64,000 bases of DNA, from contig RSEE01000034.1 of the NCBI GenBank assembly GCA_003971905.1, positions 124,001 to 188,000 on the forward strand. Direction: 5' to 3'. This document shows positions 5,601-62,053 of the stretch, piece after piece; within the stretch, counting starts at the first letter, position 1, and each line of letters opens with the position of its first letter. This DNA comes from Moniliella sp. 'wahieum' (lineage: Eukaryota). The notes under the pieces are model-generated. The model searched no databases, was not told the DNA's origin, and saw only the letters and a list, made by a program, of their open reading frames with translations. Both the position numbers and the translations under genes were made by a program.

Positions 5601-5655
5601 TGCGAGGGGGGACGCACCCACTTACTAGGAGTGCGACGTGACACGTGCGATCACA

Positions 5656-5742
5656 TGTGACATGGGCTGTGACATGGGCTGTGACATAGCTGTGACATAG
5701 CTGTGACATGGGCTGTGACATGGGCTGTGACATGTGACATGG
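5656..5742. repeat. Minisatellite: 8 copies of palindromic TGTGACA with 0-5 bp spacers (TGGGC/TAGC)
   Basis: TGTGACA starts at 5656, 5668, 5680, 5691, 5702, 5714, 5726 and 5733. Confidence 0.95.
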
Positions 5743-6699
5743 GACGCATCCCCCATGGGGGAAGCGGAGTTGAAATGTGCAACGCGAGCCCGCAGCACGG
5801 TCGTCGGTACGCCGACAAAAGCGCGGCTGGAGAGACTGGCTCGCTTCTGCCGTCATGCCCAACACTCGCGCCATTGCCCACCACCATCGCCGCCACGCGG
5901 AACGACTTGGGGATGGAATGTGCGACCGGTGCGGATGGGAAGCCATGCGACGCTTTTTGGCGGCCCCTGCATGACCGCCTCCATCTGCCTCGCCGATTCT
6001 CCTGGGTCAGGGGCAACAGCGGATGAGTTGCCCGCGAGTGACCCAGCCCCCGTTCGTGGTACCACAAGGCCCAAAAGTCCACGAGACCACCAGGCCACAT
6101 GCCCACTTGTCCAACCCAGATTTCCAAAAGGTACGTCGAACTGCACAGGCCAAACCATTCTGGTCGGCGATTGTAACGTGCTAGATCAAGGCTATGTGTG
6201 TCTGATCGAGAAAACGCGTTTGATTCTGTAAGCGCAGATCGGAAGAAGATCGATCGCAGCCGGCAATGGAGGAGAATGGAGCTTGTCCCTCCCTCGTCCG
6301 AGGAACGGGGAGAGGATCAGGGTGCTTGTGATGGTGGCGAGCAGCCCACACATGCAAAAAAACCGTCAATCATCAAGAGGAGGCATTGTCCCGCAGCGGA
6401 GCCTGAAAAGGGAGCGCCCGACCTCTGGCCATCAGCCTAGGGGGCGGAGGCCCGCCCCCGGCGTTTCTTGGGATGGGAACCCGCGTGGGACGAACACGGC
6501 ACGACAGGACCCAACCGACCCAGTGTCGCACGCATTGGGCCATGGCAGAGGGGGTGAGGTGGCACGAACCACTTCGGTGCGGACGATCTGTTGGGGACGA
6601 AGCACCGCTTCAGTGCTGGCGACCACCGGAAGAGGGGTGACCGGAACCAGTCGATGCGAGCCGGCCTACTATTCAGTCTCACTTGACGGCGGGGGCATG

Positions 6700-7120
6700 G
6701 ACATTGTGTCGGTACTGGGGCGCATACATGTTCGTCAAAGACCGTGTGCGCTCTTCAAATGCCAACCCACGCTTCTCCTTATGTTGCGGTCAAAGTGTGT
6801 TTCAACTCTCCTCTCCTCCTGTATTGTTCCACTGCTCTAACCCTTCCTTTCCTTTCTACCGGATGATTTCCCACCGCTCCGAACCGTGCACATCAATAGC
6901 TTTAAACTGTGCACGTGCATGCAATCGCTGGTACTCAGTAAACCCGCGAGCGACTCGTTGATGGATGTACAAGTCGCCGCTCTGATCCTAGCCTACCCTC
7001 ACCTCTGCCACGTTCGTCTCTTCCGCATGGACAGTGTCGGCCCATCGACGATGCAGGCCTTGACGTTGGTGGCCCGTGGTTTGCAACGTCTTGCTCTGAA
7101 AGACTGTGCGCTAGTTAGGT
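6700..7120 (+). pseudogene. Possible LRR/RNI-like (F-box type) gene fragment
   Basis: VAALILAYPHLCHVRLFRMDSVGPSTMQALTLVARGLQRLALKDC resembles RNI-like leucine-rich repeats and is followed by a GTAAGG donor at 7119. No complete gene model. Confidence 0.3.
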
Positions 7121-7299
7121 AAGGCTGTAAATGCATGACTTCAGTATATTAAGTATACTGCCGTCTTGCTGGGTCGCCAGGAGGGTCCATTGCGTGCTAA
7201 GAACGCGACCCCGCCATATTTTGCATTCATTGCGCGCTGAGAACCAGGCACCGCCGTTTCGCGCTTTTGAGGACAAGGGGGCAGTATAGGCAGGGGAAG

Positions 7300-7990
7300 A
7301 TGTACTGCCGGGACTGAGACAGCTGATACTGACGGCGAACTGGACTCTGGCATGCTCGGGAAGGAAGGCGGGCGTGATGGCGTGGGACTGGACTAAAGGC
7401 GATCCCTTACACGAATGTCGAATAAAAGCGAACATCCTCCAGACGAGAGACAAGACAGTGTCGAGACATGGGGTAGTCCGTGAATTTGGGATATCTGGCC
7501 CCTGTCCCGTTCTGAGCGCGAGGCCTGGCGTGTCTTCTTCCAAAATCTTGGCTTTATAGAAGGAGATGCCCGTCCCTTCGGCGAAAATCGTCGTCCAGTT
7601 GCGCCGTTACGAGGTGCCCCGACCCAAGTGTGGCTGGCAACGTCTCCAACGTTGGCTGCTTCGCAATGAAGAAAAAAAAGCGGGGGGAGGGAATCGCCCT
7701 GTCGAGCATCCTCCATGTTCCCGTCCGAAGCAACCCAAAGCTGAGTGGGGGGGGGGCATAAAACCCCCGGTCCAAAGAAGGGGTATGAGATGGGGGAAAT
7801 AACAGTGGGACGCGCTGGCGAGGGTGCGAGGGCGCACAGTGTTGAAAGCGTTGGTGAAATCGAGCATGACAACGCGGTTGAATTTGCTTCGCTCCGGGTG
7901 CTCCTTAGCCCCAGTTGGCCGCTGTAATGCGTTCGACCATCCACACCAGAGGTTCCACCCCATTACGCGATGCTAGCTCCAGCTGGATAA
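7300..7990 (-). mobile_element. Degenerate non-LTR retrotransposon reverse transcriptase, CRE-clade-like
   Basis: Ordered RT motifs across frames: NGVEPLVW, VMLDFTNAFNTV, ARQGDSLPPLFF and VTAQLDD (YLDD equivalent). Confidence 0.75.
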
Positions 7991-8169
7991 AGAGGATCCT
8001 GATGGAGCAGGAACCGCTAGGGGTGGAGGAGGCGGCGGCGCTGGCGGGGGCGGCAGGCTTCTCTGCGTCAGTAACTGCCAACGCTCACTTTAAACTACGC
8101 ACTAAGAGGTGTATTAAGCTATCTTGAATACAGCACAGGGCCCATACTACCCCTAGCCGCACCCATTGA

Positions 8170-10010
8170 TCGGTCAATCGATCCGCCGGCTGTCTTCCTC
8201 GTCCAGGGCCTTCAGTCGCTCATCCTGTAACACGGCTAGGGCCTGTCGCTCCAATCCCCGCGCGGACCGGATCCGAACAAAAGGAATACCAATTGTGGCA
8301 TGAGACTGTCTGGCAAGGCTCAACACCGTTTGCTCGCCATGTGTCGTGGAGGGGACCACATGTGTAAGAACAAGTTGCACAGGATGGTCGATATGGACCA
8401 CAGCTTCCAAGCCACGTACAGGGATGCTTAAGCCGCTGCCATTGTTCTCCCCATTCTCTGTTAAGGCTCAATCTGAGCGCTTCGGATCGTTCTCTTCCAT
8501 CTCGGACCGTTCACGCACAGCACTGACCACCACTTTGGTTACAGACAATCCTTAGGACCGCTGCAGTCAACGAAGCGAACATGGACCTGACTTCGGCCGC
8601 GATCCAAATCTTGTATGTCACCGACGGGTCCTGAAGGCCAACCAGAATCCCCGGCTGATCCCGACTTCCCCGCTCACTGCGGACCGGACGTTGATCTACC
8701 TCCCAAACCATGCAATCCCCACGATCTGAAGATGATTGGTGTAGGCATTCAATAATCCCAAGCCAGAGCGTTGCAGAGGCAGGACTAACCTTCGCCTTCG
8801 ATACCAGACTCGGAGACGGTAAAATGTGGCGAATGTGGCGTCCATTAGTATGCAGTCGCGGACACGGAGAGGGGCCATAGTTGAGAGGTACCATATTCAA
8901 ATCTGCACGCCAAACCCGTACCATGCTAACCAATGTGCGATCCAAGCACTCAGCCTTGCAATGTACCGGAGGGTATACTAGGGAGTATTGATCTCGCGTG
9001 CAATACCCAGAATACGTTCTTAGTCTTACCGTTAATGCATGGAGACCGATTGTCCGACTGAAAGAACTTGGCCTCCCTTCCCCGCTGCACCTTGTGCAAG
9101 ACCGGAGGAGCCCAAGAATTTGGGTGGTGAACCTTTGGAAATGTAGAGCAATGCAATCGCGATGGTGGTGGTCCAAGGTCTAAGCCATCTGCCACACCTG
9201 GAAGAGACAGGGGTTCGAACAAGCAGAAATATACAAGTGGAGCCTTCTGAGGTCAATTAAGGGGAAAAGGGTGGTAAGGCATCTTGGCCTACGTCGGGAC
9301 CACGGGTCCTAACCTCTTGGTCACGGCGAGAAACATATTAATCAGCTCAGTAAGCCGCGCAGTGTTGGCCAAGGTGGATACCCAACACTTGATTGAAAAA
9401 TCATCCACCACGGTAACGACAAACCTCACCTTGTTCACGTTACTGGGAAGGGGTTCAACATTGTCTGCGTGAATACGCCGGCCTCGGCCCCGGCTGGGTA
9501 TTCATGCACATCAGCTTAGGCTTGATATCGAAAAGGACAGTTCCGAGCAATGTGGGTCTCCTTGTTGCAAACATAGCAAAGTCGCCGATGTCGCTGGCCC
9601 GACGCCTCTCTGACAACTGGGCTCGGCGGGCCACCATCTTGGCAGCCTTCTTTTCCTCGTCGAGATGACGCTGCTTCTCTTTGAGCACACGTTCATGGAT
9701 CAATAGCTCTGTCAAAGCTTCTTGGCGCGTCAGATTCGGACGCCACTGACATGGAATGATGACATCGGTGTACTCTGAGGGAAGACCGTTCCACACAGCG
9801 GCAAGGTAGCAAATATCGTCCGTTTCGTAGCCTGCAACCTTCATGTGCGCCACGTAGCCATCAATCCGATTGATGTAGTCGCTGATAGACTCCGTCGGAT
9901 CCTTGCGGGCTGAGATCAGATTACTCATGACCTCGTAGACATAGGTAGTGGCATTGCCGGAAATGGAGGCACGCAAAGTGGTGCTGTTGATCGACAGCCT
10001 CGGGTCCATC
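8170..10010 (-). mobile_element. Degenerate Ty1/copia element (gag/UBN2-like, integrase, truncated downstream region)
   Basis: 9455-10009 is gag-like (ESISDYINRI...LAAVWNGLPSEY). Integrase remnants VVDDFS, FQSDN, KAECLDRTLVSMVR and GILVG..YKIW, with many stops and frameshifts. Confidence 0.8.
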
Positions 10011-11989
10011 GGACGGGGACCAAGGAGGAGCAGGCCTTGAGGCCCTAAGGGTCGATGAGGTTGCAGAGTGGTGGTAGCCAGTCAAGTTCAAATTTCAAGG
10101 CTTTTCACCGGATGGTGGGAGGAAGGCGCTCGCTGAGGTAAGCACACACAGTTCGCCTGGTTAGATTCAATGCCTGTCAATGCCCTGCTAGGCGCTGCGC
10201 TGCGCTACCCAGTTCCAGCCCCGCAGCCTACCCCAGTCTGCCCCAGCATATCCCCGCCTGCCCCAGCTGGCAAACGGAGTTCGGCGCAGCGCTGCGAGCT
10301 TGAAGCTAGAAGGTGGAAGGTTGGAAGGCGGCGCGCACCTGGTCAAATAGTTGGAACAGGGAACCATCCCGACGAGCATACGCTGCGAACGTCTCTGTCG
10401 TGCTTTACATGGTAATACTTGCGCAGTTCCAGCGATCTTTGTGCACCAACATTCACTTCGTGTTCACAGTAAAGCTCGTCAAAAGTATAGGTAAACCTTG
10501 GCCTTCGCAAGTATGACCCCACTGCAAGGAGCACCAGCAGCTAGACTCGCAAAACGTCTCATTGTCCAGATCAAGTCCCCAAACATTTGTTCCACTTTGG
10601 TGTCGTTGGGGCGAAGAGGGAAGCTCAATTCGGCTTGGTTGGCGTTGCCGCTGACGGCACCAGCACTCCAAATGCACTAGCAGGCGGGAGCACACTGCGG
10701 AATCCGTTACTCTTCAGTACCAACAACGGGATGGCGGGGGCAACTGCTGCGCCTGTGCCTCCTTTGGCCCACCTGGGACAATTAGTATAGCCAACACGGA
10801 AAAATGACGAGAGCCAGTCGATCCAGCAGATGATGATGAGGAGGTACGACTCGAGTAGGATTTTCCCGCCCCATTGGCCCCAGTCACTATTAAGGCCCGA
10901 GTGGACAGAGAGGTCCGAGTAGGCTTGTGCACGACTACTGTGTGAGTGAACATGGGGTTGGCGGTGATCGTGGTGGTGATGCTTGTCGAGCAAGGACTGT
11001 GTGGGGAGCGATGGAATCCAGGAAGGTGATATGGGTTGGCATAGCAGTCTGTCCACAGGCATCCCTTGACGACGACACAAGGCGGGAGGCCAAAGTCATC
11101 GGCTGGCTTACAGGACAGGAGGTTGAGCAGGCTAGGCCAAGCTGAAGAGGGTGAGGTGGAGAAGGGGCCATGCAAGATCGATATAAACACGCCTAGCCTC
11201 AAAAAAGAGCGCTGATAGTGTGAAGTATCGGCGGGGGGGGGGGGTTGAAGCACAGAAGCTCAGTGCGTGTTCAGCGTCGGGGACGTCCAGCGGTCAGCGA
11301 TACCCGAGGAGGAGGAGGGGAGGAGGGAAAGGGCAACGGTAGACTGCTCTATGCACAGTGCATGCCGTCTCGGACAGCAGAGCAGAGTGGTGGATGCGGG
11401 TGGCGACATGCGCGGTGCTGGCGCTGGTAGCGGGAAAAAGCGTTGCGATGGCCATCGTCAGGCCTCAGGCCCTCAGGCCTCACCGGCCTCAGGCCTCACC
11501 CCGCCCCCAGTTGGCCTCACCCCGCCCCCGTACCTACACTGCTGCCTTGCTCCGTTCCCGATGTGCAAGTGATCATGCAGATCATGCTGTGACGCCACAT
11601 CGTGTGCATCGCGCGTCAGTCGCGTCAGTGATGCACGCCAGTACTCAGTAACTCAGTTGAGCGCTGATTAAGGATTGAGCAGATCCCCCACGAGCGTGAG
11701 CGCGTGAGCGTAGATGAACGCGTGAACGTGTGAAGAGTTCGCATGCATCACAAGGGGGAGTCAAGCTAGTCACTAGTCGTGCATCATAACCTGCTCGGGC
11801 TGGTCGACGGGCTACCAAGTGCTACCTTCTCTGGCCACGGGCCCCAACCGGTAACCAAGCGTTGCCTAAGGGCGCCAATGTAGTCACAGAATCAATAAAC
11901 GTTCAGATCGAAGGGCACAATAGGTACTACTAGTCATACAAACAGATACAAGAAGCCACCAGTCCCACCACCACGGCCAACGCACCGAT

Positions 11990-13115
11990 CTACTTACGGT
12001 GGTAGCGCTGGTCCTCGAGAGCGCGGGCAAACAAAGCGCGTGCTTGGGCCTGCGCTTCGGGCGTACCCACATGATTCTGCGGCGGCGCAGAAAAGTACGG
12101 GGGCGGCATAGCCGGAGGAAGACGAGAAGAGTGCGCAGGATCGGCGGGGGGCGGCTGAAACAAGTGATTGAAATGAATGGGCGCGCCAGGCGGCTCTGGG
12201 GGACGCGGCACACTGGGTTGGGCTGGAACGTTCTTCTTCTTGGGCGCCTTGCGTGCACCGCCCTTCTTCGCTTGAGGCCTCGGCGCCGGACTAGGCTCCA
12301 TAGGAATAGCACCGCCCGGGTGGTGCATAGGCGGGCGGTGCCCTGGCGGGGCCTGCTCCACTCCACCAAGAGGAAGTGCCATAGACATGTACAAACCCTG
12401 CTGCCCCTGCCCAATGGTGTGCGGGCCAGGGGGAAGCGCGGTAAGTGAAGACGGGGGCAACGCCGAAGGGGGGAAATGCATCCCGGGGTGGCCAAGGTTC
12501 GGGTCCGAAGGCGGCTGGGCCGCGAGAGCGGAAGCATGCTGCGCGTGCGCAATGCTCTCGTCAGGGGCTTGTTCCTCCACGCGAGACGAGCGATGGGCCT
12601 TGTAGATGTGCTGGCTCAGTGCATGACGATTCTGCGCCGTGTAAGGGCAGTACTCGCACCGGTGAGGGCGATCAGCCGTGTGAACACGCATGTGCCACTG
12701 CAAAGCCGGCGGAGAGCGAACGGTTCGCGCACAAATGGGACACGTCACGCCACCCACGGGGGTGGAAGAGGCTTTGGAAGAGTAGCCTCGACCGCGTGGC
12801 GCCTTCTGCCCCGGCTGGCCGTTGGCGCGCTCGGCGCGCGTCGGTTGCTGACCGAGTTGGGGTTCCGGTCGCGATGATGCTTGTACATGTGTTGGTGGAG
12901 CGCGTGACGCGTAGGCCCGGAGTAATCAGAGCACAGAGGACAAGGGAAGGGGCGATCGCCCTGGTGCGAGCGCATGTGCCATTGGAGCGCGGGGGGGGAG
13001 CGCACGTGGCGGCCGCACACGTTGCAAATGTATGGCCCAGCGGTGGTGGAAGGCGAAGTTCCGGGCGGAGCACTTCCGTTTGCGCCACCATCCATGTTGG
13101 GGGGATGGCCGACAT
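11990..13115 (-). CDS. C2H2 zinc-finger transcription factor (4 fingers in two similar pairs, Pro-rich C-terminus); two apparent homopolymer frameshifts
   Basis: CNVC...HMRSH-QGDRPFPCPLC...HMYKH and CPIC...HMRVH-TADRPHRCEYC...HIYKAH. Adding one C in the runs at ~13100 and ~12760 gives a single ORF. Confidence 0.85.
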
Positions 13116-13445
13116 GACTTGGAGGACGGGCACGGACAGGGGCGACGCGCTCGAGCCGTTGGATGGTGGAAGGGGGGAGCGCAGACGCGCGGTCGAACCC
13201 AAGCCCCCAACCGCACGGCAACCCTAGCACAGCATGACGCGTAACGTAATCACCGATGCAAATGCTGGGCTGAGCCTCAGCGCGGAGGCTCAGCTGAGCC
13301 CGAGGGGAAAGGAAGAAAAAAACATGTGACGCGCACGCGAGTAAAGCGGACGCCGTTCACGTGCAGGGCTGGGCGCCTTACGTCACCTGGTCAGCTGCGC
13401 CACCGCGGCCATTGGGATTATCGAAAGGAGCGCACCACCACCGCC

Positions 13446-15431
13446 ATGGCCGAGGAGCGTGCGACGCTCGATGATTCGCACTTTGACGTACTTCTCGTCG
13501 GCACTGATCTTCCCACTGCCATAACGGGTGCTGCACTGGCCCACGCCGGCTTGCGTGCACTCCACATCGACCCCCAGCCGTACTATGGGGGGGATTGGGC
13601 CAGCTTGACTTTGACCGAACTTGCCCAATGGGTTTCTCACCGGCCTGCTGCTGCTCAGGCCTCGGTTTGTTTTCCATACTTTCGCACACCAGATGGAGCC
13701 CCCACGGAGATTCCATCCGCGCTCCAGCGTTTGGACCGTCAGTTCAGCATTGCCCTCACGCCCACGCTGTTGGCCAGCCGCGGTCTAGGTATCGACACGC
13801 TCGTTAAGAGCAATGTGGCTCAGTACAGCACCTTCCGCCTGCTTGAACTCACTGCGTTGGTGTCCAACACTGCACCACCAAGTTTGCGGAAAGTTCCAAG
13901 CAGCAAAGAGGACGTGTTTAAGGACCGCTCGCTATCGCTCATTGAGAAGCGCAAGCTGATGAAATTCCTCCAGCATGTCTCTTCTCTCGCCTCCGAGTTT
14001 GGTGGAGATGTAGCGGCGATTGAGCAGCAAGCTGCGAAGGATCCGTCCTTGATTCCAGATCAGCCATTTGACGTTTACCTACGCTCTCAGTTTGGCTTCC
14101 CCGACGGCTTGGTGGTCCCCCTGCTGTATGGCATTGGGATGGCCCCCTGGGATGGGAATGACGAGCTCCACCCCTCGCTGTCAGCCCGCGAGGGGATTCT
14201 CCGCGTCGCTTCCCATTTCTAGCACAGGCCGATATGGGAACAGTGCGTATCTAGTTGGCCAATATGGTGGCGCAGGCGAGATGGTCCAAGGTTATGCCCG
14301 CTCGGCCGCAGTCAAGGGAACCTTGTTCATGCTGTGGGTGTCAGATCGAGTCGTTGTCCCGCGCCGAGCTTTCAGATCAAGTCAAAGGAAAGAACGCCGT
14401 TTGGAAGGCCGAGATCAGTTCGGTGCAGGGTCCGATTACTGCCGATTGGGTCGTTGGGGCGCCCAGCCTTACCCATGGCGCAAATGCCACTTATGCCGTT
14501 ACGTCGTCCATGGGAACTGTTGCCCGTGGGATCGTTTTGCTTGACCGGCCGGTAGACTTTGCTGGAATGTTGGCTGCTGGGGCAGCTCCCGCCCCGACGC
14601 CATCTAGCATGACGGAAGGGACTGGTGTTTCAACGGCAGGCAAAACGTACGAGACGGCTTTATTGGTGATCCCACCTTCAGCGGAGGGTCACACTGCCTG
14701 CAACATTCTTGTAATGGGGGAAGGGACGTTCAGCTGCCCCAAGGGGACATACTTGTACTACCTCACCCAGTACCTTCCAAGTCTTCCTGCTCCAGATGAG
14801 ACGCCAGAACGGATGTTGCGCCCCTACGTGGAAATGCTTTTACATTGGGCTGCACCTTCCCCTCCCGAATGGAAACCTCCCGATCCTGAAGTTTCCACTT
14901 CAGCTCCCGTGGTGGGGCCAGCGCAGGTACCCGAGAAATCGGATGATTTGACGCCTATTCCTTCATCCGAGCCCGTCCCGCTTTTCGAAGCGTTTTACTG
15001 GCAACCGAGTGTGGCTTCAACTGAGGAGAGTGCTCCCAGTGAACACTTTGTTCCGTTGACGTTCCCTCCTGTCCCTAGGGAGATGGTCGGTCCGGCTCTG
15101 CCTCCCTCTCTGGCCGAGATAACTGATCGTGCCGCCGAAGTTGCTGAAGATGCATTCTGGTACATCTTGGGTCATGAAGAAGTTACTTCGTCTCAGCCTA
15201 CTGCCGCCACCTCGATCCAAGCCAAGGAGATGGGCCAGCGACTAAGGGTGCGTGCCCAGCTCAAAGCCCAACGCCGATCCAAGACATGGGAGGGTCGAGA
15301 CGCTGCTGAGTATGCAGGTCGGGCAGGTGTGTTGGAGGGACCTTCGGATGGGTCTGACGCTCCCACATCAGACGGGATCAACTGGGACGAGGTGGTAGAG
15401 TTTCCCTCCAAAACAGGAGGAAGAGGTATAA
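13446..15431 (+). CDS. Rab escort protein (REP / Rab geranylgeranyltransferase component A, GDI family, MRS6-like); apparent frameshifts
   Basis: FDVLLVGT..AALAHAG.RALHID..PYYGG.WASL, KVPSSKEDVFKD..LSLIEKRKLMKFL, STGRYGNSAYL..QYGGAGE..QG.AR.AAV.G and SCPKG. Frame changes near 14220, 14337 and possibly 15400. Confidence 0.85.
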
Positions 15432-15527
15432 CATGTAACACCCTATCTGCACTAATCAAGGGGTGTACACAGATGCAATGCCAGATAACTAACGGTAGGT
15501 GATGTGTATAGCATACCAATCCAGCCG

Positions 15528-16932
15528 CTACGCGTCTTGGTTGTTTTTGGGCTTCTCAGCGGAAACCTCCTCGCTAGTCTTAGTGGCAGAGTTTTTTTCG
15601 CGTCCTCGGCACGTTGCAGCTCCTCGGCCAATTGTTCGCGCAAAGAACGGGATGGGTTGGCCTCGGCCGCAGCTTGGCCCCCCTCAGTCGCCGGTACGGT
15701 ATGAGCGAGAGAAGAGGGCAGAATAGGCTTCACGACGCCCGTTCCCAAACGAGCCCGAACAGCAGGGTTCGAGAGGATCAGCGTCTGCAGTGCGGTAAAC
15801 ACGGCGTTGGTCGCCCAACATCAGTAACACCGCCGCCGGGAAGTTAGTTAGAGGAACAGTGGAGACAAGAGGAGCGCACCCCGAACAATGTTGCGGGTCA
15901 TCTGAGCCATTGGCTGGTTCTCCTTCGACACCGCGTGGGTCGCCGACGACAACTCCATCGACAGCAGTTGGCTGGCAGCAGTGGCGACGGGCAGGATGAG
16001 GTAGGGATCCGGAACGGTCAAGTTGGGGAACCAAAGAGCGCCGCCTGTCACCATAGACGCCAGCCCAGCGTGCGCCATGTAGTCAAACGCAAAGAAGAGC
16101 GTAAGGAAGATGGGCATGTTAAAGACGACGGGCACTAAGGGTGCCAAGGGATTGGCCTTGTTTTGCACCAACAGCAGCTTGACATCCGTTGACGCACGCA
16201 TCATCTGAGCTTGGTCGTTGGTTTGCCGAGCGAGTGTGAGTTGGTTCATGAGGCGTGCCATGTAGGGCTGGATCGCGGCCAAGCGGGCCGAACTCCGCAT
16301 TCCCCGAATCATGACAGGCAGTAGCGCCAGCTTGGCAGTCACCACAGCACCCACAATCACCTGCCACCAAGGCAGGCCGGTGGAGACAGCGACCCACTCG
16401 AGCAATTGCTGCATGTACGGCACTGTGAGCCACCCGTTGGGAAGACCAGCGGCAGCGAACTCGCTTACCCTGTCGGTAATCCCAGTGTCTACTGCGGCTT
16501 GGGCCACCTCCACTGCCTCTTGCATGGAAGAAGCAGTGTCGGGAGCAAGCGACGTGAAAGTGTCGGATGCGCCAGACACAGCTCCACCTTGCAGGGTGTC
16601 GGGGCAGTGGCCACGGCGCTGGCTGCGCCAAGGGCATCGCCAGGGACGGCGTCACCGACAGCGAGCGAGTCTTCAGGGAGAAAAGGGTCCGAAGTGGGCG
16701 CCGCCTTCTCCTTATTGGAGGACGACCAAAGCGAGAAGGAGCGAGAGGCCGGGATGGAGGCCAGAGTCGCGAGCGGCGTCCGGGTGGGGATGGGACGGGA
16801 CGAGGGCAGAGAGTGGAAGAGCGACGGGGACCGATACGCAAGAGACCGTGCGAGTCCTGATGCGGGCGGGGGCCGAAGCGAGGGCTTGGCGTGCGCGGCC
16901 GGGCGGAGGAGGCGGAGAGCGGCGGTCGACAT
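15528..16932 (-). CDS. OXA1: Mitochondrial inner-membrane insertase Oxa1 (YidC/Oxa1 family); apparent frameshifts
   Basis: Arg/Ser-rich presequence MSTAALRLLR; TGLPWWQVIV..KLALLP, GGALWFPNLTVPDPYLILP and FPAAVLL.WATN..FT.LQ. Confidence 0.88.
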
Positions 16933-17023: not shown

Positions 17024-17111
17024 CATTGAACATTGCACATTGAACATTGCACATTGAACATTGAACATTGAACATTGAACATTGAACACTGCATCACCAT
17101 GATGCATGATG
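17024..17111. repeat. Heptamer microsatellite (CATTGAA/CATTGCA) x~10 followed by (CATGATG)x2, in the Oxa1 upstream region
   Basis: Read directly from the sequence. Confidence 0.95.
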
Positions 17112-20517: not shown

Positions 20518-20585
20518 TGAAGCTTCAAACAAGCTTCAAGCTTCAAGCTCTTCAAGCCTCAAGGGCCTCAAGCCTCAACTTGAGG
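20518..20585. repeat. CTTCAAG/CCTCAAG heptamer cluster
   Basis: tgaagcttcaaacaagcttcaagcttcaagctcttcaagcctcaag...cctcaacttgagg. Confidence 0.85.
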
Positions 20586-25650: not shown

Positions 25651-25700
25651 GCTGGACGCTGGACGCTGGACGCGGGACACGGGACGCGAGACGCGGGACG
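25651..25700. repeat. Degenerate heptamer tandem (GCTGGAC/GCGGGAC) x7
   Basis: gctggac gctggac gctggac gcgggac acgggac gcgagac gcgggac. Confidence 0.85.
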
Positions 25701-45760: not shown

Positions 45761-47187
45761 TCATGTCTGGCCATCCTGCAGGCACTGGTGCAGAGGCGGC
45801 AGAGTGTACGCTGGTGCTGCCTCGTCCCAACGCCGCCGCGTCTGCTGCAGCTGCTCAGTTGCTCCCGCCCGCCGCACCTCCAGTGGCGCCGCCATCGACC
45901 CAAGCCCCTCGCGCTGCGTCATCGGAAGCGGTGGCAAGGCCGGGATGCGACTTTGGGGGAGAACATCCGCCGCCCACGGGGTCACGTTCTGGCTGGACCG
46001 ACCGCTCTGCCTCTGGCCCTGGCCCAGATTCAGGCCCAGATCAATCGGGGAAGCGGTGGCATCGAGGGCGGAGGCATCGGTGGCAGAGGGGGAAGGATCA
46101 GCCGTGTGGGTCCAGATGGCCCCGCACGTGGTGGCGAGGTGCCTCTTGCCTCCTGTACGTGGGCGAGGTGGGGCAAGGGACTGGGCGGCGGGGACGGGTG
46201 CCTGAGCTCGATGCTGCCAGTGGGCCGGCCCGCTTGTCGCATCGCCTTGGCTGCGTTCGATGCTCGGTTGCGCTCGGCCCGGACTCGTGCCAGCTTGGTG
46301 GACCACCGCCCGCCTGGGCGACAGGACTGGGCATGTTTGCGCAACAATTCAGGCGAGGTATGGTAGTAATAACAGTCGCCAAACACGCAATGGAACTGGC
46401 CATCGGGCGATCGCTCCACTTTGAACACGGTTGTCTTGCGCAGTGGATACGGAAGTTGGTCAATCACTTGTTGGTGGGCCAAGCGGCGGTGGGCACGCAT
46501 CTGACCTGAAGAAGGGTACTCAGCCCCGCACCCGGGCACAGGACACTTGTGCAACTTGGTCCCAACCCCATTGGAAGCGGGTGTGGGAGTAGAGTCCTGC
46601 ACCTTGCTTCGGCGCATTGGCAGTTTTGATGGCGCGGGAGGCTCGGGAGGGGGTCGAGGTTGGGCGAAGTGGGAGTATGGATGGGAAAGCGGGTACTGAT
46701 GAGGGTGGGAATGAGGATAGGGAGGGGGCGGAGCCGGAGTCGGAAGAGACCCTATGCTTGGCTCGGATGTAGATTCAACGCCACCCCAGGGAAGGCCAGC
46801 CAAAGCAATCGCAGCAGCCCATGCGGATTGAACGGACTCGTCGCCAGGCGGCAGTGGCAGCGACGACGGATGCGGCAGAGTGACAGAAGTCGGCATAGTC
46901 TGTCCCTGGGCCTGAGTAGGCTGCTTGGCGGCACAGGTACGCACATGAGGGTGCAATGAAGAGGTGTGGAATGTGGTCCACTTGCATCCAGGCCAGGGAC
47001 AGACCCATGGATCTTCTTCGTGTGCTCGAGAGACGGTGATGCTTGCTCCACCATCGGATTCCCTCAGGCGAAGGGTGCTGGTGAGCTGGTGCCGTCGCAT
47101 GTGAGATCGACGGGCCGAGCTGGAGCTGAACTCGGCGGAGCAGTGGGGACATTTTTCTCGCGATGAACCCGGTGGACTGAAGGACAT
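45761..47187 (-). CDS. Zinc-finger protein with two (C2H2 + C2HC) modules; C-terminus probably frameshifted
   Basis: CPHC..HMRRH / CPWPGC..HVRTC and CPVPGC..HRRLAH / CVFGDC..HAQSC in ORF 46030-47187. An overlapping frame continues to 45761. Confidence 0.75.
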
Positions 47188-48435
47188 GATGATTGGGAAG
47201 GGAAAGGAGATGTCGGCGTGAGGTCAAGAAATGGTCTGGGGTGGAAGGCGGTCGTATAGAGGTCGAGAGGGGTGTTGCGGGCGACTTAGTGTGAGACGGA
47301 AGCACAAGGCTCAACGATGATGTTAAAGAGGCGGGGAGAGGGCGGAGAAAGGCGGAGAAAGTGGAACACAGATGCAGGGAATGGGTGTATCAGCATCCGT
47401 GTTACCCACACGGGTGGTAAAAGTGGCGGTTACGAGCGACGGTGGTTTGCTTGGGGTTTAGTGGCGGGGAGAAGGCATGGCAGTGGACAGAAAAGATGTG
47501 GGGGAGGGGGGAGCTGATTGTGAACAAGTCTCGCCAAGAGGGGAATTGGGAGGAAGGGACCGAGGGGGGGGGATCAGGTGTTCTCAGCCTAGCTAGGTGT
47601 AACCTCACACGGTGCCAACCGTCAACATTCAAGGTTGAACTTCAACGGTCGACTGAGGTTCGACCTGCGGGTGCGATTGGTTGGCGCAAAACCCAGAGGC
47701 CTCAGCCTAGCCTACGACAAAACCCCCGCGTTGGGCAGGCCGATCTGGCTGCTGGGGCTGCGGCGGGAGAGGTTGTGCTCATTGCGTGTTACGCGTTACG
47801 GGACTGGCTGGCTGGGGAGACCGGAGACGAAGGGTTTGGTTGAACCAAAGTTGACTCGAGCGCTAAGCAAGCCTGCGATCGAGCCCACCCGGGCAGCAGG
47901 CAGGGGCGTGTGCAATGGGGCCAGGGGCTGGGGAAGCGGGTGGGAGCAACTGGCGGGTGGGGTGATGCATCCGGGTGGGTGAAGCTGAAGACGCGAGTGG
48001 GCCGAGCTGGATGTGGGTCACGCGCTCCAGCCTGGTTTTCAAACGGCGGAGCCGCACTCAGTAACTCAGCACCCAGAACGTAGAACCCAGAACTCAGCTG
48101 TCCTCAGCCGGCTCGCCAGTGTGGCAGCAAAACTCGTATGGTTATGCCGGTTATGGGTGATGCATTTGTGCCGCTCACCGGTCACGTCAGCGGTTGTTCT
48201 TGGGGCAGCCCGAACGTTACGCGTCAGAAACGCCAAACGTCAAGACGTGACTATTGGTGACTGTGCGGCGCCATGCTGCGGCCCAGAGCCCTGCCGAGCG
48301 CCGCCTGAGGCCTGAGATGGCTCAATTGGGCGGATCGATGGGTTTGCGCAGCGCGGGGGCGGTGTGTCGCCATCAGAGGGTGTCTGTGCGACTCGCCTGG
48401 GCGTCTGGCGAGACAGTTTTCTGTTGTACTTGCTG

Positions 48436-48950
48436 AGTGACTGGTTACTAGTTACTAGTTACTGAGCACCGAGTTCAGCTACGCCCGCCTGCCTGAGCAA
48501 GCAGCAACCGCCCCCCCGAAGCGCCGACAACACCCTATGTAGCACCAACAAACTCACCCCAGTCTTGCCAGGGCTCCGCCCCGTATGACCCTATTTTTGC
48601 CTCTCAGATCTCAGGGCCCGCCCTGAGACTGCTCTACTCCTGCACCCAAGCACCAGCGCGCACATCCATCACATCCCAGCCTCATAACCTCTCGTCTCTT
48701 CCTCCTGATGCATCTGATGCATCCGGCCCCATTAGCGTTACGCGTTACGCGGTTACTGATTACCGGTTACCGGTTACCGGTTACGCGTGCACAGAGGGCG
48801 CATATCCTTGTCCTGTGTGTACTTTGGCCGTAGTCACCTATTCGTGTCTGTCACTCGTTATACCCGCTGGTGTCGCGTCTCTTCCGCATCATTCAGAGTT
48901 TCAGAACCTCAGAGCTTCAGAGCTTCAGAGCTTCAGAGCTTCAGCCGTTC
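48436..48950. repeat. Cluster of short palindromic tandem repeats: (AGTTACT)2, (CGTTACG)2, (GGTTACC)2, (CTTCAGAG)~4
   Basis: 48450-48463, 48736-48749, 48765-48778 and 48908-48945. Confidence 0.9.
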
Positions 48951-49449
48951 AGCGCGCCTAGCCCAGGCCTAGAAACTCAGAATCCAACAACAGATCAGTG
49001 CATATGGTACATCACCGATCAGTCACCGGACAGTTCGTTTGGACCCAATGTGCCCATTCCACCTAAGTGGTGGTGCTGGGAACGCACTGATGGCGTAGAA
49101 ACGTTGCACATTGGATTCTCTCTTGGTCACAAGCGGGCTAGACATCTGCATCATGGTCAAACACCGTTGCCCCTTCCGAGTACCGAGCCCCGCGGGCCAT
49201 CCAAGGCCACGGGCATGTGCACCCAACATTGACACGATGGCATCCTATACTCGGACCAAGACCCAGCTGTACACAGAGCCGAGGCATTCCAACAAGGCGA
49301 CGTGGGGTGGGTGAGAAGCCTATTACCCCCCAGACAAAAATGCATTCACTGCCCCCTCCGTTGTGATTACTGACGGATTCAACGGCCTGCCCCGGCTTCC
49401 CCCCTCCGCCGCGGCGGCGATAGCACCGAAATGGGGTCAGGCTCAGGCC

Positions 49450-51695
49450 TCACGCTTCCCGCGCACGCTTTTGCTCCGTGCCGTCGTCACCAGCCACAGC
49501 AGCCGAGTCGCGTGCGCGCTTGCCCTTGGCCGGGCCCGGTGTCATGCGCGCCGCCGTAGCTGGCCCCCAATTTGGTAGTGGGTTCTCCTGGTACCGTACG
49601 ATCCGGCTCCTCTTCGGCCCTACCTTGCGGTGGAAGTGTTCGCCCGATGCAGTCACTTGTCCTCCCGTTTCGTCCGTCGTGGCCGCCACCGGTTCGGCCC
49701 CAGGCATTTGCGGAAGCAAAATCCGGTCTGCATCCGGGTGGGGCGAAAGGTTCCATTCCCGCTCGATGGGCTTGGACGAGAGAACAAAGGCCGGTGCCTG
49801 CTCATTCTGTGCCTTGACCCGCTTGCTCATTTCGATCGTCCGACCCACCAGCGGTTCTTCATTAAGTTCCTTCTCTGTTTCCTCTTTTCCCGTCTCAGGA
49901 GACGACAGCAGCAGCAGCAGCGGCTTCCTTGTCCTGCTGCCGGCGGAGCCAGTAACGGTAAATGTCCTGCACCGCCGAGAAAGGGGCGGTAGTCTTCATC
50001 GAACCAGGTAGGCAGTGGGAGCGGCTGACCTCGTACCCGGCATGCAGTAGCGCGTGCACAAAGATGGGCAGAGGTGCCGAGGTACCATGAAAAGCGCGCG
50101 AAACTTGGGCAGAAGTAAAGTAGAACAAGCTTCGCTCAGAAGAGGTGGAGAAAAACCCATTCGCATCGGTCTCCTCTCCGGGGCGGGAGGCGGGGACGGA
50201 AGGCAGCTTGGTCTCGACCGTCGCAGTCCGAGGATCGGGCTGGTGAGCATTGCCCAGCTCCTCAACCGCAGTGGAGACCATGCCAATAATTCGGGGTGCT
50301 GTGCGGTAGTTACTTTCTTCCTTTTGAACCAGCTCCAGAAGCCGCGTGCAGAAACCAACGTCATGCAAAGGCCCCGACCAGTACGGCCCTGCCATGAGGA
50401 AGCTCCCCCACACAGGTCACACTGGGACCCCACCGGAGGCCGGCGGTGGAAAACTTGATCTGTGCCTGCCCATTCTTGGCCGGTGGGCCTTGGCGCACAC
50501 GGGCCATGGGCATATGTGCCGTGTTGGAACAGCTCTGGCAGGTCCAGGAGAGAGCGGATTGGCTAGCAAGGTGCTTGGTCTCCTGAACACTACTGTACAC
50601 TCGTACAAATACGCGCACGTAAAAGTCAATCGAAAGAGATAGGACTGGCTGGATCACGCGCCCATAGCGAGCTGCATTGGTCGCAATCGCATGCAGCAGC
50701 AAACGCAGCGCAAGCTCATGACTGTGCTCGGCACGGAGGTTCATACCTCCATAAAGCGTGAACGACTTTTCAGGGTATTGTCCCCCAGCCAGCACAGCCA
50801 AGTCAGTGCACGTCACGCACAGCAACCCCCCATCGGCCACGGCTTGGACTGTGGCATCCAGGAACATGGATGCACTCCCGTATGGATCGAGATCGATCAC
50901 GTCAAACCGACCCATATCGTTGGTACGATGGGCATACATGACGCTCAGCGCATCCCCTTCGTTGATGCGAATCTTGCTGCTGCCGTTGACGCTGGCTTCA
51001 GCCGGGCCAGATGGGCTGGGAGCGTCAGTAGAAGCAGCATTCCCTTCCTCCGTTTTGCGCGTAGACTCGTCGGCTGGTTCAGGGAAGTTGAGCGCCACAT
51101 TCCTGCGCATCGCCGTGATGGCGGAAGCAGAAATGTCATTGGCCAAAATCCATTTGATGGTGTCAATCTCTTTGGCGTAACGGATGCTGCGCAGGCCCGT
51201 GGCGGCCAATGCCTCAAGCACAGTGAAGCGCTGGACAGGTAGTTGTGGAGGTCCAGAGGCAGAAGCTGCCGCGGCCTCAGAGGGGTCGGTAGTGGTGGTG
51301 TTGGAAGTGTCCGCAACAGGGGGTTGACGGGCCTTGCGCTTGGCAGCCTTGCGCTCGCTCGCAGCTTGTTTCTGGACCCACGCCAGGTGTCGGCGGTGCT
51401 GGCGTTCGGCCTGCATATCCGCTTGCCAGGTGCGGATCGCACAGATAGACAAGTCGCGATTGAACTCCTGGACCGGATTGAGGAATGCAGCCGCTGAAGG
51501 TCCCTGGCCGCCGGGGACGATAATGCCACTGCCTTCGGGGGCTTTTGCTAGCTGGGTGTTGTCGACAGGTGCGGCAGGGGTGGCGAAGAGAACGAAGGCC
51601 TTACCCTCGCGATAAGCAACCTCGTTGGGGTCAATCGTCACGCCGAGCTGCTCCGCCATCTCGGCGGGGGTAAGCATCTTTGGGCCGGGCGCCAT
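49450..51695 (-). CDS. TRM1: tRNA (guanine26-N2)-dimethyltransferase; apparent frameshifts near 50420 and 49900-50000
   Basis: FLNPVQEFNRDLS, LEALAATGLRSIRYAKE, FDVIDLDPYGS, GGLLCVTCTDLAVL, SLSIDFYVRVFVRV, GPYWSGPLHD, GYEVSRSHC and YQENP.PNWGP. Confidence 0.93.
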
Positions 51696-52983: not shown

Positions 52984-54049
52984 AGTCAGCGGGAAGAACA
53001 TGCCTACACTGAGTGCACACCAACACATTGAGTATGGAGTAGTGAGCATAGAGCACAGCGCGTTTGATCCGTAACCGCATGCCAGGAAAATGGGAGCAAC
53101 GCAGGCAACGGCGGCGGGCTTCTCGGGAGCAGCCGAGAACGCAAGTCAGGCAGCTAGAAGTGCGATCCACATTGAGTGGTTCCGCTGCTTCTGGGCGGTC
53201 AGCTGTGTTGCACCGAATCCGTTTGAGGATTATTTTTTGACGCATGTCCTGCTGTGTTCATCTCAAGATCTCAAGAGAACTGAGAATGTCAGTGCTGGCA
53301 TATCTACATGGAAACCGTCAGTGCGTGAGTGCTGATGAGCTGCCGTGGATGCAAGGAAGACCAGCCCCAGCGGCCGCCGGCACACCGATGCGCAAACGGT
53401 GCGAGGACCGATTGGCGACTGGCGGTAACCGGTAACCGGGAATCGAGATAGCACAGGTAACCCTATGGCAACTACCCACTGCGTGCGTGTGATGGATGTG
53501 GCAGCGGGAGCAGCCAAGATAAGATTACGCCATCGCATACACTGCCCCCCAGCCTCAGCAGCGCAGGCCTACACTTCGCCGTGCTAGCTCTGCTCCCTCG
53601 TATACTGTCGCAGGCCCCGGGCAGAGTTGGCGTGCTTGCGCTTCCTGCGCATCTGTTACCCGTCGGATGTCACTCGTCACTGGTCACTCCGTGGGCAGGC
53701 TGAAGGAAAGAATAGTACGCAAGCGACCCCTCCATCTCGCCGTGTACAGCCAGATATCGCACTCGTACGCAGAGCCACGCACTCAACGCCCACAGCACCA
53801 TTTACGCAGCCACAGCCATCACATACTGCCCCAGCACGCCAGCATCCCTCCCTAGCAGGATGGTAGTGCCCCTGGCCAGCGCTTTTCCCGTCGAAAAGCT
53901 CGCACAACAGCGTCCCTCACACAGACATAATCGCCGTGTAGCACTGGCCCCACCCCCCAGAGTGTTGGCCATACATAAACCGTCCAATCCGCCATCCGAG
54001 AGCCACATCTTCTCTCCCACCACACTCCCCATCGCTCCTCCTCTTTGCC

Positions 54050-56403: not shown

Positions 56404-56914
56404 GTGAATGTAGTCGTCCTGAATGGTTAGGCTGACGGTTTTTGCCAATCTGGACGCTTGAGCAGCTGTCCGAGCGAGTAGGTGGCGAGAAGAGGAATGT
56501 GGTGGTTTTGAGGTTCGATGTTGAGAGGGTTGAAGCCTAAGTTCTAAGAGGGATGCGGCTCGATGTGGTCCCCTGTCTTCCTCGGTCTCTTTCATCCACC
56601 GTCACATGTTATTGTGAGTGCCAGAGTGATATAGTGATAGTTTATTTTTTGGTTCCTAGCCGGCCTAGCGGGGCTAGCGTCTAGGGCCTATCATTCTCGA
56701 ATATCAAGTACACATCCCTTTAGCCACTCGTGCTTGAAGTGAACCCCCGCCGTTAGACGGACTGTAACTCGCTGCCAGCCCCCACCGGTTGCATCAGTAT
56801 CATGCATCATTAGCTCTCGCAAAGCCACTATAACATTACGGGGAAGTGCTGTCGGATGCTTTTCTCCTTTTTAGCTCCACGGGGCTTCGCAGCCTTCGTA
56901 GGTGATGACTAGGT

Positions 56915-57270
56915 GACTTCAAGCTTCAGTACTCGCTGCCTCTCGCTTGAAGCTTCAAGCTTCAAGCCTCGCTGCAGGCTTGAGCTCAAGCTCAAGCTTC
57001 AAGGGAAGCTTCAGCAAGCTCTTCAAGCCTCAAGTTCTCAAGCTTCAAGCTTCAAGCTTCATCATGCATCATCGAACATCGATCATCCGGTGCCCTACCG
57101 TGCTTCACACCGTGAACAACTCTTCCCGCCTGCATCTGAGGATGGACGTGGTGGACGATGGTCGATGGACAATGGTCGATGGACGATGGTCGATGGTGAC
57201 CGGTGACCGGCGACGTGGGACGCGTGACGCGGGACGCAGTGTCACATGTCAGGAACTAGGAACTAGCGGC
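56915..57270. repeat. Dense cluster of heptamer/palindromic tandem repeats (CTTSAAG, GATGGWC, GGTGACC, GGAACTA)
   Basis: 56946-56966 CTTGAAG-CTTCAAG-CTTCAAG; 57043-57056; 57141-57195; 57195-57208. Confidence 0.9.
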
Positions 57271-59330: not shown

Positions 59331-59580
59331 CGCTGCCTCAGGCCGCGCGCAGCCCCGACGAGGGACCCCAACAAGGTGCCTACCGCACCTTGCCCCAAGA
59401 CCCAGCCGATGCGCAACCTTAACCTGGTTACCTACCAGCTACACGCCATCCGTCCACGTTATACATGTTTCCATCTGTGTTCCCATCAGCGACGTCGGGA
59501 CACTGCTCAAGGTAACATGGCAGACGAGGTGAGGGCGACCGATTGAGCATGCTTTCATATCCTGGATTCTCGGGGGGCAC

Positions 59581-60137
59581 TTAGAGACCCAAAAATGACT
59601 TGAGAGGCTCAAAACCCAAGTTCAACTGGGTGGTAGAATGTGCGTGTCAGTACTCTCGTCCGCACACCCTCCGCAGTATAGGGAACACAAACGTACATTG
59701 TACAGGCCAGCAAGGACCGTGATGGCCACTGTGCCCAGGGCACCAATGCCGCGTCCAAAGCCATCGGCGCCGGGAGTCAAGATACCAAAGTTGGCCTGGA
59801 GGACGCGGAGACCGAAAAGGGTAGCGTAGGCACCGTGCACCAGCGCCGTCGGCGCACCGTTGAGTTCAGCCAGGAAGATGAAGCCAAAAGCGAGCGGGGT
59901 GTTCTCCACAAAGTTGGCGTGCGCACGCACGGCCTTAATCAGCGCCAGCTTGTCCTCGGTAGTGTTGGTTTCGTTGCCGCCATGCTTGATCGAGTCGGCC
60001 TCGTTGCCCTGGCCCTCACCAATGTAGTAGCCAGTCTTGACGCGCTGGCCAATGACCTTGACGGTGAGGTAGGAGTAGTAGCCTGCAAAGAGGGCCGAGT
60101 GGGCGAGGGAGGCGGGGGAGAGGACGAAGAGGGGCAT
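59581..60137 (-). CDS. MAPEG family membrane protein; one intron
   Basis: VRAHANFVENTPL...LAELNGA....H...L...RV. Intron 59696-59626 then LNLGFEPLKSFLGL*. Confidence 0.88.
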
Positions 60138-62053
60138 TGCCGGCAAAAGAAGTGGAGGAAGGGGGTTGGTGGTGGGATGGAAGGGAGGGCGGGACGCTGG
60201 CTGTGGAGTGGGGAGGGCGAGTGGGCAAGTGAGGCTTCTGGGTGCGTGCACGGACCGCGGGAAGCGCAGCGGCAGCAGGCAGCCGCAAGCCGCAAGCCGC
60301 AGCCCAACCAGACGCCTGCCGGCAACCCTACTGCTCGGGCTGCGTCTGTGCCGCCCACCGGCGTCCTGCGCTGTGCTGCTGCGCTGTGCTGCTGCGCTGT
60401 GCGGCTGCGCCGTACTGCCCGTCTGCCTCGCCCTGGTGCATGATGCATGGCGACCGGTGATCGGGGCTTAATAATTCCGCCCTCGCGCGTCCGCTGCCCC
60501 AGCATGGCCAGCCGGCAGCCGACGCACAGGCGCGCGACAACGTTCTTCATCTGTCGAACCCTGCCGAAGTGCCCGGGCTGCCTTGGGGCCTTCAAGCTTC
60601 AAGCTTCATATGCATCGATCAGGTGACCTCGTCGGTGACGCGTGACGTGTGATGGCCACCGGATAAGCTGGCTCGGACGGGGCCGTGGGCTGCTGGTGCT
60701 TGCACAACACCAGGAGAAATGGCAACGGCAGGCTACACGACTCGACGTCGGCGATGATCGATCAAGCTTCCAGTCGCTACACCATTTCCCAGGCCTCGCT
60801 ATTAGCCGTGTCGGCGTTAGGCAATGAATGAATGGAGTTGGGTTTAACGTTTAACGTTTACCACTAGGAAGCTAAAGGGAAGCCAACCATACGTGCGGAC
60901 TGTGTGCCAGTGTGAGAGGCTCCGAGGCCGAAAGCCCGAGGAAGGCCCGACCAGGCCCGATACACACGCGCCACACGACATCACACATTCAGCGATAGAA
61001 CAGCCAGAGCTTGGACAACAAAAAGAGAGAGCACTGAGATCTGAGAAAGCATCACGTCTTCGTTGACTATAAAGCAAAAGCCTTCAAGTGCGGACCGAAG
61101 AGAATCTCTCCTGGTCGTCTCCTTCTGTGTGAGTGCCCTGCAGGTGGTCGATGTTGTCGTATGATCCCACAATGGCAACCAAAGCGCTGGTTGGCCTTGG
61201 CGCCAAAGCGTGCCACACATTACGGCTGCCGGTGCCGGGAGGAGCCGACAGGGTATTCTGAGAAAAGGAAAAACGCGCAAGGGTGTGAGAGAGACGATAG
61301 AGAGTTGGTGGTGGGCATCGCACCGATGACCGAGAATTGGCCAGAACTTGCGGGAAAAGAACCATTGAGAGCTCCGTTGAGCACGTTGAGCATTGAGTAC
61401 TGTCCAGGCCATTTGGGCCACAGCCAAAGGCAGGCAAAGATGCAGCACTCGAGTCAGCACCAAGTCTAGTATTGTGACGTGGAGATGGTATAGTAGCTTG
61501 ACCTGGACAGATCACCCTGTGCGATATGCTTAGTGGCACGGCACTATAGTAGGCCATGCAATGCTCTGACAGCGCGCCTGCGCCTTCCTTTTGTGTTCGC
61601 GTCCCCTCCTCTCTTCTCTCCACGACTGACGCCACTTCCACTCGATACTTCGTTCACACTCCGTGCTCGCCCGTCAGCTCCCAAGTAGTAGCTCTTTCGG
61701 TCAGTAATAGGTGAGCCATCTGATTGCGGCCAGTTGGTCACGGCGCAACACAGTAATAGGATTCATGATATATTTTTCGCCTGTTTGCACAGCCGGCCGA
61801 TTACCGGTTATCGCCGCGGCTCTAGCACAGCAGCCGTTGGAGCTGGGAGCGGGCTTTGGCCGGACATGTTTGAGGAAGCATGGGTGCCTGCGCAGCACTG
61901 GATCCGTCAATAATAATGTATACCACCCGCGAAGAAGCTTAGCCTCCAAAAGTTATATCTGATCGATCTGATCTACTGTGACATCTTTGCGGTCGCCTTC
62001 TTCTCTCTTTACCACCACCGCTACTCCCCCTTCGCTCTCCTACTGTCAAGGCC

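Follow-up and report, generated by a model that had tools for sequence, protein, structure and literature searches.

When Ac/Ds elements (hAT) excise in Candida albicans, budding yeast or plants, the footprint retains the target duplication and carries short palindromes of P nucleotides at the joint, and hairpin-derived P nucleotides at excision sites are thereby documented in a fungus (PMC5873905). In RAG/Transib and in Muta1, a MULE, a hairpin forms on the flanking DNA and is opened by host enzymes (PMC5499845, PMC2803484). Target duplications of 7 bp have been documented for the basidiomycete DNA transposons hAT7, from rust fungi, and Kyakuja, from Agaricomycotina (PMC12730594), and hAT families with duplications of this length are mentioned in PMC4455052. 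Here we analyse a 64-kb stretch of genomic DNA (the window) whose intergenic regions carry tandem arrays built on the sequence TNA. Their unit, rather than being a palindromic word, consists of a site ab-TNA-cd, where ab and cd are the two bases on either side, in direct duplication, with a junction made from the site's own flanks. We favour, with moderate confidence, the view that excision footprints of a hairpin-forming cut-and-paste DNA transposon, with a 7-bp target duplication at nn-T-N-A-nn, have accumulated into these arrays.

All counts rest on this one window. Its region borders were drawn by hand after the sequence had been read, which assigned 24.0 kb to genes, 21.6 kb to intergenic DNA and 18.4 kb to a class of retroelement or unclear DNA; expected values come from dinucleotide-preserving shuffles in 500-base blocks (100 shuffles for the count of period-7 tandems). 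Perfect tandems of period 7 occur 28 times, against 4.3±2.2 in shuffles. Of these, 17 can be rotated into a palindrome, which is centred on T-N-A in 16 cases (0.06 expected) and on G-N-C in one; the other 11 are non-palindromic. Other periods are also raised (85 observed vs 60 shuffled for period 5, 43 vs 16 for period 6, 6 vs 1.1 for period 8 and 6 vs 0.3 for period 9). An earlier, sequence-only reading had described tandem heptamers of diverse sequence that share a 3-bp inverted repeat around a T-N-A core and lie almost only in non-coding DNA; every dimer that it listed is present where it was placed. The restriction to non-coding DNA stands as well, the excess of TNA-core heptamers being confined to intergenic DNA (147 vs 63±8 shuffled, compared with 49 vs 61 in genes and 61 vs 58 in retroelement or unclear DNA). 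Set beside the other palindromic cores, the comparison which that reading had proposed, TNA again stands out, since ANT, CNG and GNC cores are not enriched in any region class of the window. The tandem heptamers are real and far beyond chance.

The internal structure of the arrays is more specific than a palindromic heptamer. TNA pairs with the same central base lie four bases apart 80 times (14.3 expected), and 49 such pairs enclose a 4-bp palindrome (0.8 expected), whereas inverted pairs at this distance are at expectation overall (13 vs 13.0) and number 8, vs 0.7, where a palindrome is enclosed. Usually just one of two adjacent heptamers is palindromic, and the 46 chains in the window draw on 13 of the 16 possible 4-bp cores. 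In a plain 7-bp duplication the direct match has to reach at least 4 bases outside the two TNAs, which it does in 11 of the 41 single events, while 30 fall short. In 17 of the 41, one side of the direct repeat runs on for exactly 2 bases and the opposite side for 0-1, with left and right equally frequent. These flank matches imply that the usual event converts ab-TNA-cd into ab-TNA-cd-rc(cd)-TNA-cd, or its mirror image, where rc denotes the reverse complement. The left TNA copy retains the left flank ab, the right copy retains the right flank cd, and the 4-6 bases between them are a prefix of cd + rc(cd) joined to a suffix of rc(ab) + ab.

Outside genes, this rule is followed 39 times at TCA/TGA (1.5 expected), 12 times at TTA/TAA (0.2) and 11 times at CCA/TGG (1.9). 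In variants of 8 and 9 bases, 1 and 2 mirrored bases, respectively, are added to the two 7-base copies. The former comprise 10 non-genic pairs five apart with both ab-TNA-cd copies (0.08 expected), 7 of them with an adjacent 4-bp palindrome; the latter comprise 12 non-genic pairs six apart (0.17 expected), 9 with such a palindrome, as in GTTGACA-AC-GTTGACA, an isolated event at 29876-29891, and GGTTATG-CC-GGTTATG at 48140. Several details of the sequence-only reading need amending. A core that is always T-N-A is too strict, given that CCA/TGG follows the rule too and that the spacers in certain T-N-A lattices, such as 17051-17088, are not palindromes; the 7-mer is incompletely duplicated in the 30 events mentioned above; and 13269-13299 is not a period-7 tandem. 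The eight TGTGACA copies reported at 5656-5739 do exist, in a cluster spanning 5649-5741, but just the final two are 7 apart, forming the one 7-bp link (5726-5741); the others are spaced 11-12 bp, which is probably the result of later slippage.

Two further kinds of array depart from the usual form. The eight inverted links, TGA-palindrome-TCA or the reverse, lie at 5651, 20518, 25362, 36772, 40980, 45688, 56948 and 60755, and would need longer hairpin-derived inserts. At 25626-25703 and 57152-57237, which resemble each other, period-7 arrays have TGG or GGA in place of TNA and lie beside TCGA or CGCG; these suggest a relaxed target rule.

The junctions were then predicted from their outer flanks alone under ten geometries, and scored only where plain tandem duplication fails. 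Five were even geometries (blunt hairpins) with duplications of 3, 5, 7, 9 and 11 bp, and five were odd (hAT-type) with duplications of 5, 7, 9, 11 and 13 bp. The even 7-bp model, which places the hairpin precisely at the duplication edge, explains 28 junctions (0.8±0.8 expected), of which 1 has a gap of 3 between the TNA copies, 16 a gap of 4, 5 a gap of 5 and 6 a gap of 6, with none at gaps 7-9. Even models of 3, 5, 9 and 11 bp explain 2, 4, 3 and 1 junctions (1.1, 1.8 and 0.2 expected for the first three), and odd models of 5, 7, 9, 11 and 13 bp explain 1, 2, 16, 3 and 0 (2.2 expected at 7 bp and 1.45 at 9 bp). These 28 junctions, against 0.8 expected, cannot be formed without P nucleotides copied from the end of a complete copy of the duplication. 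Applied to the 80 same-N intergenic pairs four apart, the even model is exact for 43 (0.2 expected) and one mismatch away for 20 (2.1 expected), a tally that takes in inner array links, so that its counts are not independent. The arrays combine direct duplication, fixed boundaries and mirror bases templated by the flanks, and the side-by-side test of ten geometries, which is the contribution of this window, favours even hairpins with a 7-bp duplication.

The links are unevenly distributed. They total 81 (2.5 in shuffles), with 75 in intergenic DNA, or about one per 290 intergenic bases, 3 in genes and 3 in retroelement or unclear DNA, although the depletion in this last class may be overstated by region borders that were drawn by hand after reading. 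Divergent spacers hold 27 links in 5,683 bp and convergent spacers 1 link in 2,103 bp; the links cluster, so that counts are not independent, and the convergent spacers are short, which makes the upstream bias a tendency only. The 100 bases that precede each start codon are free of links.

We suggest the following mechanism, in which element, hairpins and joining are all inferred from junction anatomy. An element would insert with a 7-base stagger centred on TNA, preferring TCA/TGA, then TTA/TAA and then CCA/TGG, and would thereby duplicate ab-TNA-cd. Excision would close each flank as a hairpin whose tip coincides with the duplication edge. Nicking by a host nuclease about 2 bases past each tip, which is where Artemis opens hairpins, would leave two self-complementary 4-base 3' overhangs, and their end joining over 4, 3 or 2 overlapping bases would give a net gain of 7, 8 or 9 bases. 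A +7 event would leave one heptamer palindromic; the overhangs of that heptamer would be fully complementary, so that a later hit would add an exact copy. Pure palindromic arrays could then grow in register, and slippage may lengthen them. The bias towards regions upstream of genes would reflect insertion into open chromatin together with selection against frameshifts in genes.

Two arrays illustrate how such events may have accumulated. Six TCA copies at 11456-11500 are joined by GGCC, GGCCC, GGCC, CCGGCC and GGCC, all of which fit, by eye, a 7-bp duplication plus 0-2 mirrored bases, and a TCA array at 20518-20578 has mixed 7- and 9-bp steps with junctions AGCT, AGCTCT, AGCC, AGGGCC and AGCC. 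Because the junction type, judged by eye, switches from step to step in both, repeated hits explain them better than slippage does.

Several results weigh against excision footprints as the origin of the arrays. Twelve of the 41 single events show a 2-base flank match on neither side. The odd 9-bp, hAT-type geometry is a serious competitor (16 junctions vs 1.45 expected): 21 junctions fit the even 7-bp model alone (0.5 expected), 9 fit the odd 9-bp model alone (1.0 expected) and 7 fit both, and although several of the odd-only junctions lie within decayed arrays or trinucleotide runs, their excess is not thereby accounted for. The geometry was, moreover, selected and scored on the same window. 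Nor is a resident element apparent. Candidate elements with terminal inverted repeats (TIRs) in the window number 3, compared with 1-4 in shuffles, and a search for 4-bp inverted ends flanked by a 7-bp TNA duplication gives 0 candidates (1.2 expected). By Pfam, no transposase family is represented in the 92 frames of at least 95 amino acids, or in 150 of the 165 frames of 55-94 amino acids outside assigned regions. Dispersed repeats within the window provide no pair with and without an insertion, and neither an empty nor an element-filled allele was seen. The density of links, finally, would demand very many fixed cycles of insertion and excision.

Some sequences in the window touch on the question of a resident element. 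Pairs with 2-bp inverted ends number 34 (25.3 in shuffles), many of them inside arrays, and pairs with CA..TG ends are absent outside arrays. A 6-kb stretch at 30533-36578, bordered by the TNA-centred heptamer TATTACC, starts with TGT, ends with ACA and holds Copia and other retroelement-like remnants; its ends have a weak inverted likeness, and with 6.45 chance pairs per shuffle it is a candidate element only. Broken Copia-type remnants (gag, reverse transcriptase) lie on the minus strand at 8400-10081 and 34102-36245, and neither contains a link. A dispersed repeat occurs in four degenerate copies, 76-83% alike, at 3265-3365, 5219-5455 (minus strand), 23912-24324 and 33328-33705, and is possibly a LINE-type remnant. 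The frame at 23677-24069 resembles two zinc knuckles, and frames at 3511-4384 on the minus strand resemble a Gypsy-type integrase remnant, in both cases by eye and without a Pfam match.

RAG coding joints carry even P nucleotides, and an even hairpin at the element boundary is the RAG/Transib geometry. Window junctions fit this even boundary hairpin, characteristic of the CMC/Transib type (EnSpm, Transib, RAG). The conversion by Muta1 of a 43-bp flank into an 86-nt hairpin agrees with even symmetry at gel resolution (PMC5499845). In duplication length, however, these systems differ from the window's 7 bp. RAG and Transib duplicate 5 bp (PMC2803484; 4 junctions vs 1.8 under the even 5-bp model), and EnSpm and Plavaka 2-3 bp (PMC12730594; 2 vs 1.1 under the even 3-bp model). 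Duplications are 8-10 bp in MULEs and 8-9 bp in Muta1 (PMC5499845), and the even 9-bp model accounts for 3 junctions (0.2 expected) against 28 at 7 bp, 9 bp being the one length in the MULE range that was modelled. Excision of Muta1 in yeast is more than 90% precise, unlike the footprints in the window (PMC5499845).

Ac/Ds footprints resemble those of the window in retaining the duplication with short P-nucleotide palindromes at the joint, and the hairpin is opened near its tip in a fungus, as we propose here (PMC5873905). Their palindromes, however, are odd and centred on the complement of the element-adjacent base (PMC5873905), whereas the window junctions are even, and the odd geometry at 7 bp accounts for 2 junctions vs 2.2 expected; the window footprints are also natural, dense and iterated, unlike those of Ac/Ds. 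Among hAT elements the duplication is 8 bp, or 7 bp in hAT7, so that the best-fit length in the window, among the odd numbers of bp that were modelled, matches hAT7 only. Kyakuja (KDZ), with a 7-bp duplication, CA..TG ends and no TIR, also agrees in length. The available text on hAT7 and Kyakuja describes neither a TNA target preference nor footprints, and the string 'Ustilag' has no match in the available main text and supplement of that paper (PMC12730594). None of the families compared combines a 7-bp duplication with even hairpins, and we assign no named family; the pattern therefore predicts an element in which target length and chemistry are paired in a new way.

The sequence-only reading had proposed a generative process acting in intergenic DNA, such as hairpin-mediated repair or the footprint of a nuclease or transposase, and had pointed to PIF/Harbinger, whose target preference, TWA/TNA, is of the same short T..A type as the window target. 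The junction anatomy supports the general proposal and not the specific pointer. A 3-bp TNA/TWA duplication, the length given for PIF/Harbinger in PMC12730594, explains 2 junctions vs 1.1 expected, while 7 bp explains 28 vs 0.8, and the 4-bp core tracks the flanks instead of fixed element ends. A variant with a 3-bp duplication and hairpins on both flanks, which predicts unlike pairs of palindromic TNA heptamers, was rejected on finding just 2 of these among 31 adjacent pairs, one of them genic.

The footprint reading has to be weighed against explanations that need no transposon. The same chemistry might operate without lasting insertion, if a transposase-like or domesticated nuclease cut nn-TNA-nn with a 7-base stagger and if, within a single episode, the ends were filled in, closed by hairpins and joined again. 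Such a cut-and-reseal process would yield the same junctions, and it fits both the link density and a window without resident elements. It counts against this process, which we consider unlikely, that we know of no enzyme forming hairpins on filled-in ends when a donor element is not involved. Polymerase template switching with slippage, in which the new strand copies 1-3 bases of the opposite strand and re-anneals 5-7 bases back, would also place short inverted inserts beside direct repeats with no element needed. It accords with the raised numbers of tandem repeats of many periods, and the T of the second TNA in the +7 class can be read as one-base microhomology. It leaves unexplained, however, why the boundaries are fixed 2 bases from TNA on both strands (28 junctions, vs 2, 4, 3 and 1 for other flank lengths) and why the +8 and +9 classes end at +9, with no events at gaps 7-9. 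Loop-less mirror symmetry amounts to a fold-back that a polymerase does not easily prime, and we regard template switching as quite improbable.

Selection for arrays of binding sites, bound by at least one promoter-opening factor whose half-site is TGA/TCA, would account for the gene-upstream bias and for the rarity of links in retroelement remnants. Such arrays would not be expected to contain 13 different cores, to favour direct over inverted copies by 49 to 8, or to have cores predicted by the outer flank, as selection for a fixed motif would not give that. This excess of direct copies and the flank-dependent diversity of the cores led us to drop our initial reading of the arrays as factor-binding sites or origin elements; the same observations, with mostly one heptamer palindromic, disfavour the structural signal that the sequence-only reading had offered as another option. 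We consider binding sites a very unlikely origin, though some arrays may have secondary use as such. An artefact of long-read base calling or assembly is more improbable still. Conserved genes split over two frames (homocitrate synthase near 37630, Rab escort protein near 14220) do suggest an unpolished assembly, but a base-caller is blind to genes and would not be expected to produce 75 links in 21.6 kb of intergenic DNA and 3 in 24.0 kb of genes, and flank-templated inserts of 7-9 bases are unlike its usual errors.

Comparisons beyond the window are limited by the material at hand. From 80 metagenomic loci with homocitrate synthase, among which none was a close relative with long flanks, we used 19 (longer than 4 kb, GC 0.50-0.65; 316 kb, redundant and gene-dense). 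These fungal loci, which are not close relatives, hold 8 TNA-palindrome-TNA links (0.025/kb), compared with 53 in the window (0.83/kb). A look-alike stretch in other genomes, sought for window positions 4137-16136 only, was not found, and prokaryote contigs yielded 0 cases of the two-core pattern. Single arrays of the same words occur in viral contigs (25, 3 and 4 loci), with 1-3 cores each and 5 in one AT-rich locus; we read these as unrelated single-unit repeats. In AT-rich viral contigs, the arrays are made of CTTGAAG and similar heptamers based on AAGC, and several adjoin an apparent promoter and gene start. We found no description of the window's repeat rule in the literature, within a search that had limited coverage of subscription journals and left the Ustilago maydis source papers outside. 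Numerous intergenic '10-bp repeats' of U. maydis have been suggested to be transposon footprints (cited in PMC4081816), and the TNA-4-TNA unit of the window is also 10 bases long. If the two are the same thing, the novelty of the pattern described here falls.

Further arrays and events are spread over most of the window. Between OXA1-like and aminotransferase genes (17024-17111), a TGA lattice with a non-palindromic spacer (17024-17088) is followed by a CATGATG dimer (17098-17111). The region at 11571-11709 holds 9-bp variants (11571, 11614) and 8-bp variants (11643, 11695), each formed by two 7-bp copies with 2 or 1 mirrored bases, respectively. A cluster at 24823-25585, with links at 24832, 25129, 25384, 25443 and 25574, lies upstream of a GATA zinc-finger gene (26404-28828), whose upstream region is long and repeat-rich. 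At 36366-36805, upstream of homocitrate synthase, are an 8-bp event (36375) and a TGA lattice (36757-36805), and upstream of RPS4 is a TGA-ACGT lattice (40939-41016). The sole link in a convergent spacer is an isolated 5+2 event, CG-TCA-TCGA-TCA-TC, at 38897-38910. Events of 8 bp (43353), 5+2 (43411) and 9 bp (43551) lie within 43353-43566, and another 5+2 event, GC-TGA-TGCA-TGA-TG, lies at 45531-45544. The densest spacer between tandem genes has 16 links in 47187-49450; at 47787-48952 it holds cores CGCG, CCGG, GGCC, CTAG and GATC, the 9-bp event at 48140 mentioned above and an 8-bp array at 48892-48952. An 8-bp event (53261) accompanies a GGTAACC dimer (53424-53437) at 53260-53439, and a divergent spacer at 56625-57253 has 11 links, in AGCT arrays and with TGCA, CCGG and CATG cores. 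A CTTCAAG array, GG-TGA-CGCG-TGA-CG, a GTTTAAC array and AC-TGA-GATC-TGA-GA follow at 60590-61046, and 9-bp events (61376, 61958) with a TTA-CCGG-TTA link (61801) lie at 61376-61973, upstream of NFS1.

The window as a whole is gene-dense eukaryotic DNA with a G+C content of 57%. Pfam matches identify a C2H2 protein, Rab escort protein, OXA1, an aminotransferase, a GATA factor, homocitrate synthase, RPS4, FIT, TRM1, TauD, MAPEG and NFS1, besides the two Copia remnants; a tRNA gene was sought in the window and none was found. Five of the conserved genes, encoding Rab escort protein (14220), OXA1 (16580), homocitrate synthase (37630), FIT (44330) and TRM1 (50400), are broken across two frames, probably by uncorrected long-read errors. 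Apart from one protein at 92%, the best relatives of NFS1 are from Testicularia, Mycosarcoma, Sporisorium and Ustilago (76-78%), followed by Tilletia (73-74%) and Malassezia (70-72%). From these relatives, the host is identified as an Ustilaginomycotina fungus.

Transposon footprints are usually studied locus by locus. If the footprint reading is correct, they would here be a main source of non-coding sequence, in the form of self-extending scars with 13 cores in 64 kb, and the arrays would document, in nature, the way in which DNA hairpins are opened and rejoined in a fungus. They would also offer a testable origin of 7-bp tandem repeats in which slippage is not needed to start. A bolder version, which we regard as doubtful, is that promoter DNA was rewritten tens of thousands of times by a DDE-type enzyme not yet described, with a stagger of 7 bases centred on TNA and blunt hairpins like those of RAG, which may have left no elements in place. 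Its scars, as better and self-copying targets, would constitute a programmed generator of tandem repeats and of candidate regulatory sequence, and the tiny intergenic repeats of other smuts may be older products of the same activity. Tandem repeats make up 4-11% of the Ustilaginales genomes tabulated in PMC4824034, and iterated excision footprints may explain why spacers in smut genomes are rich in repeats.

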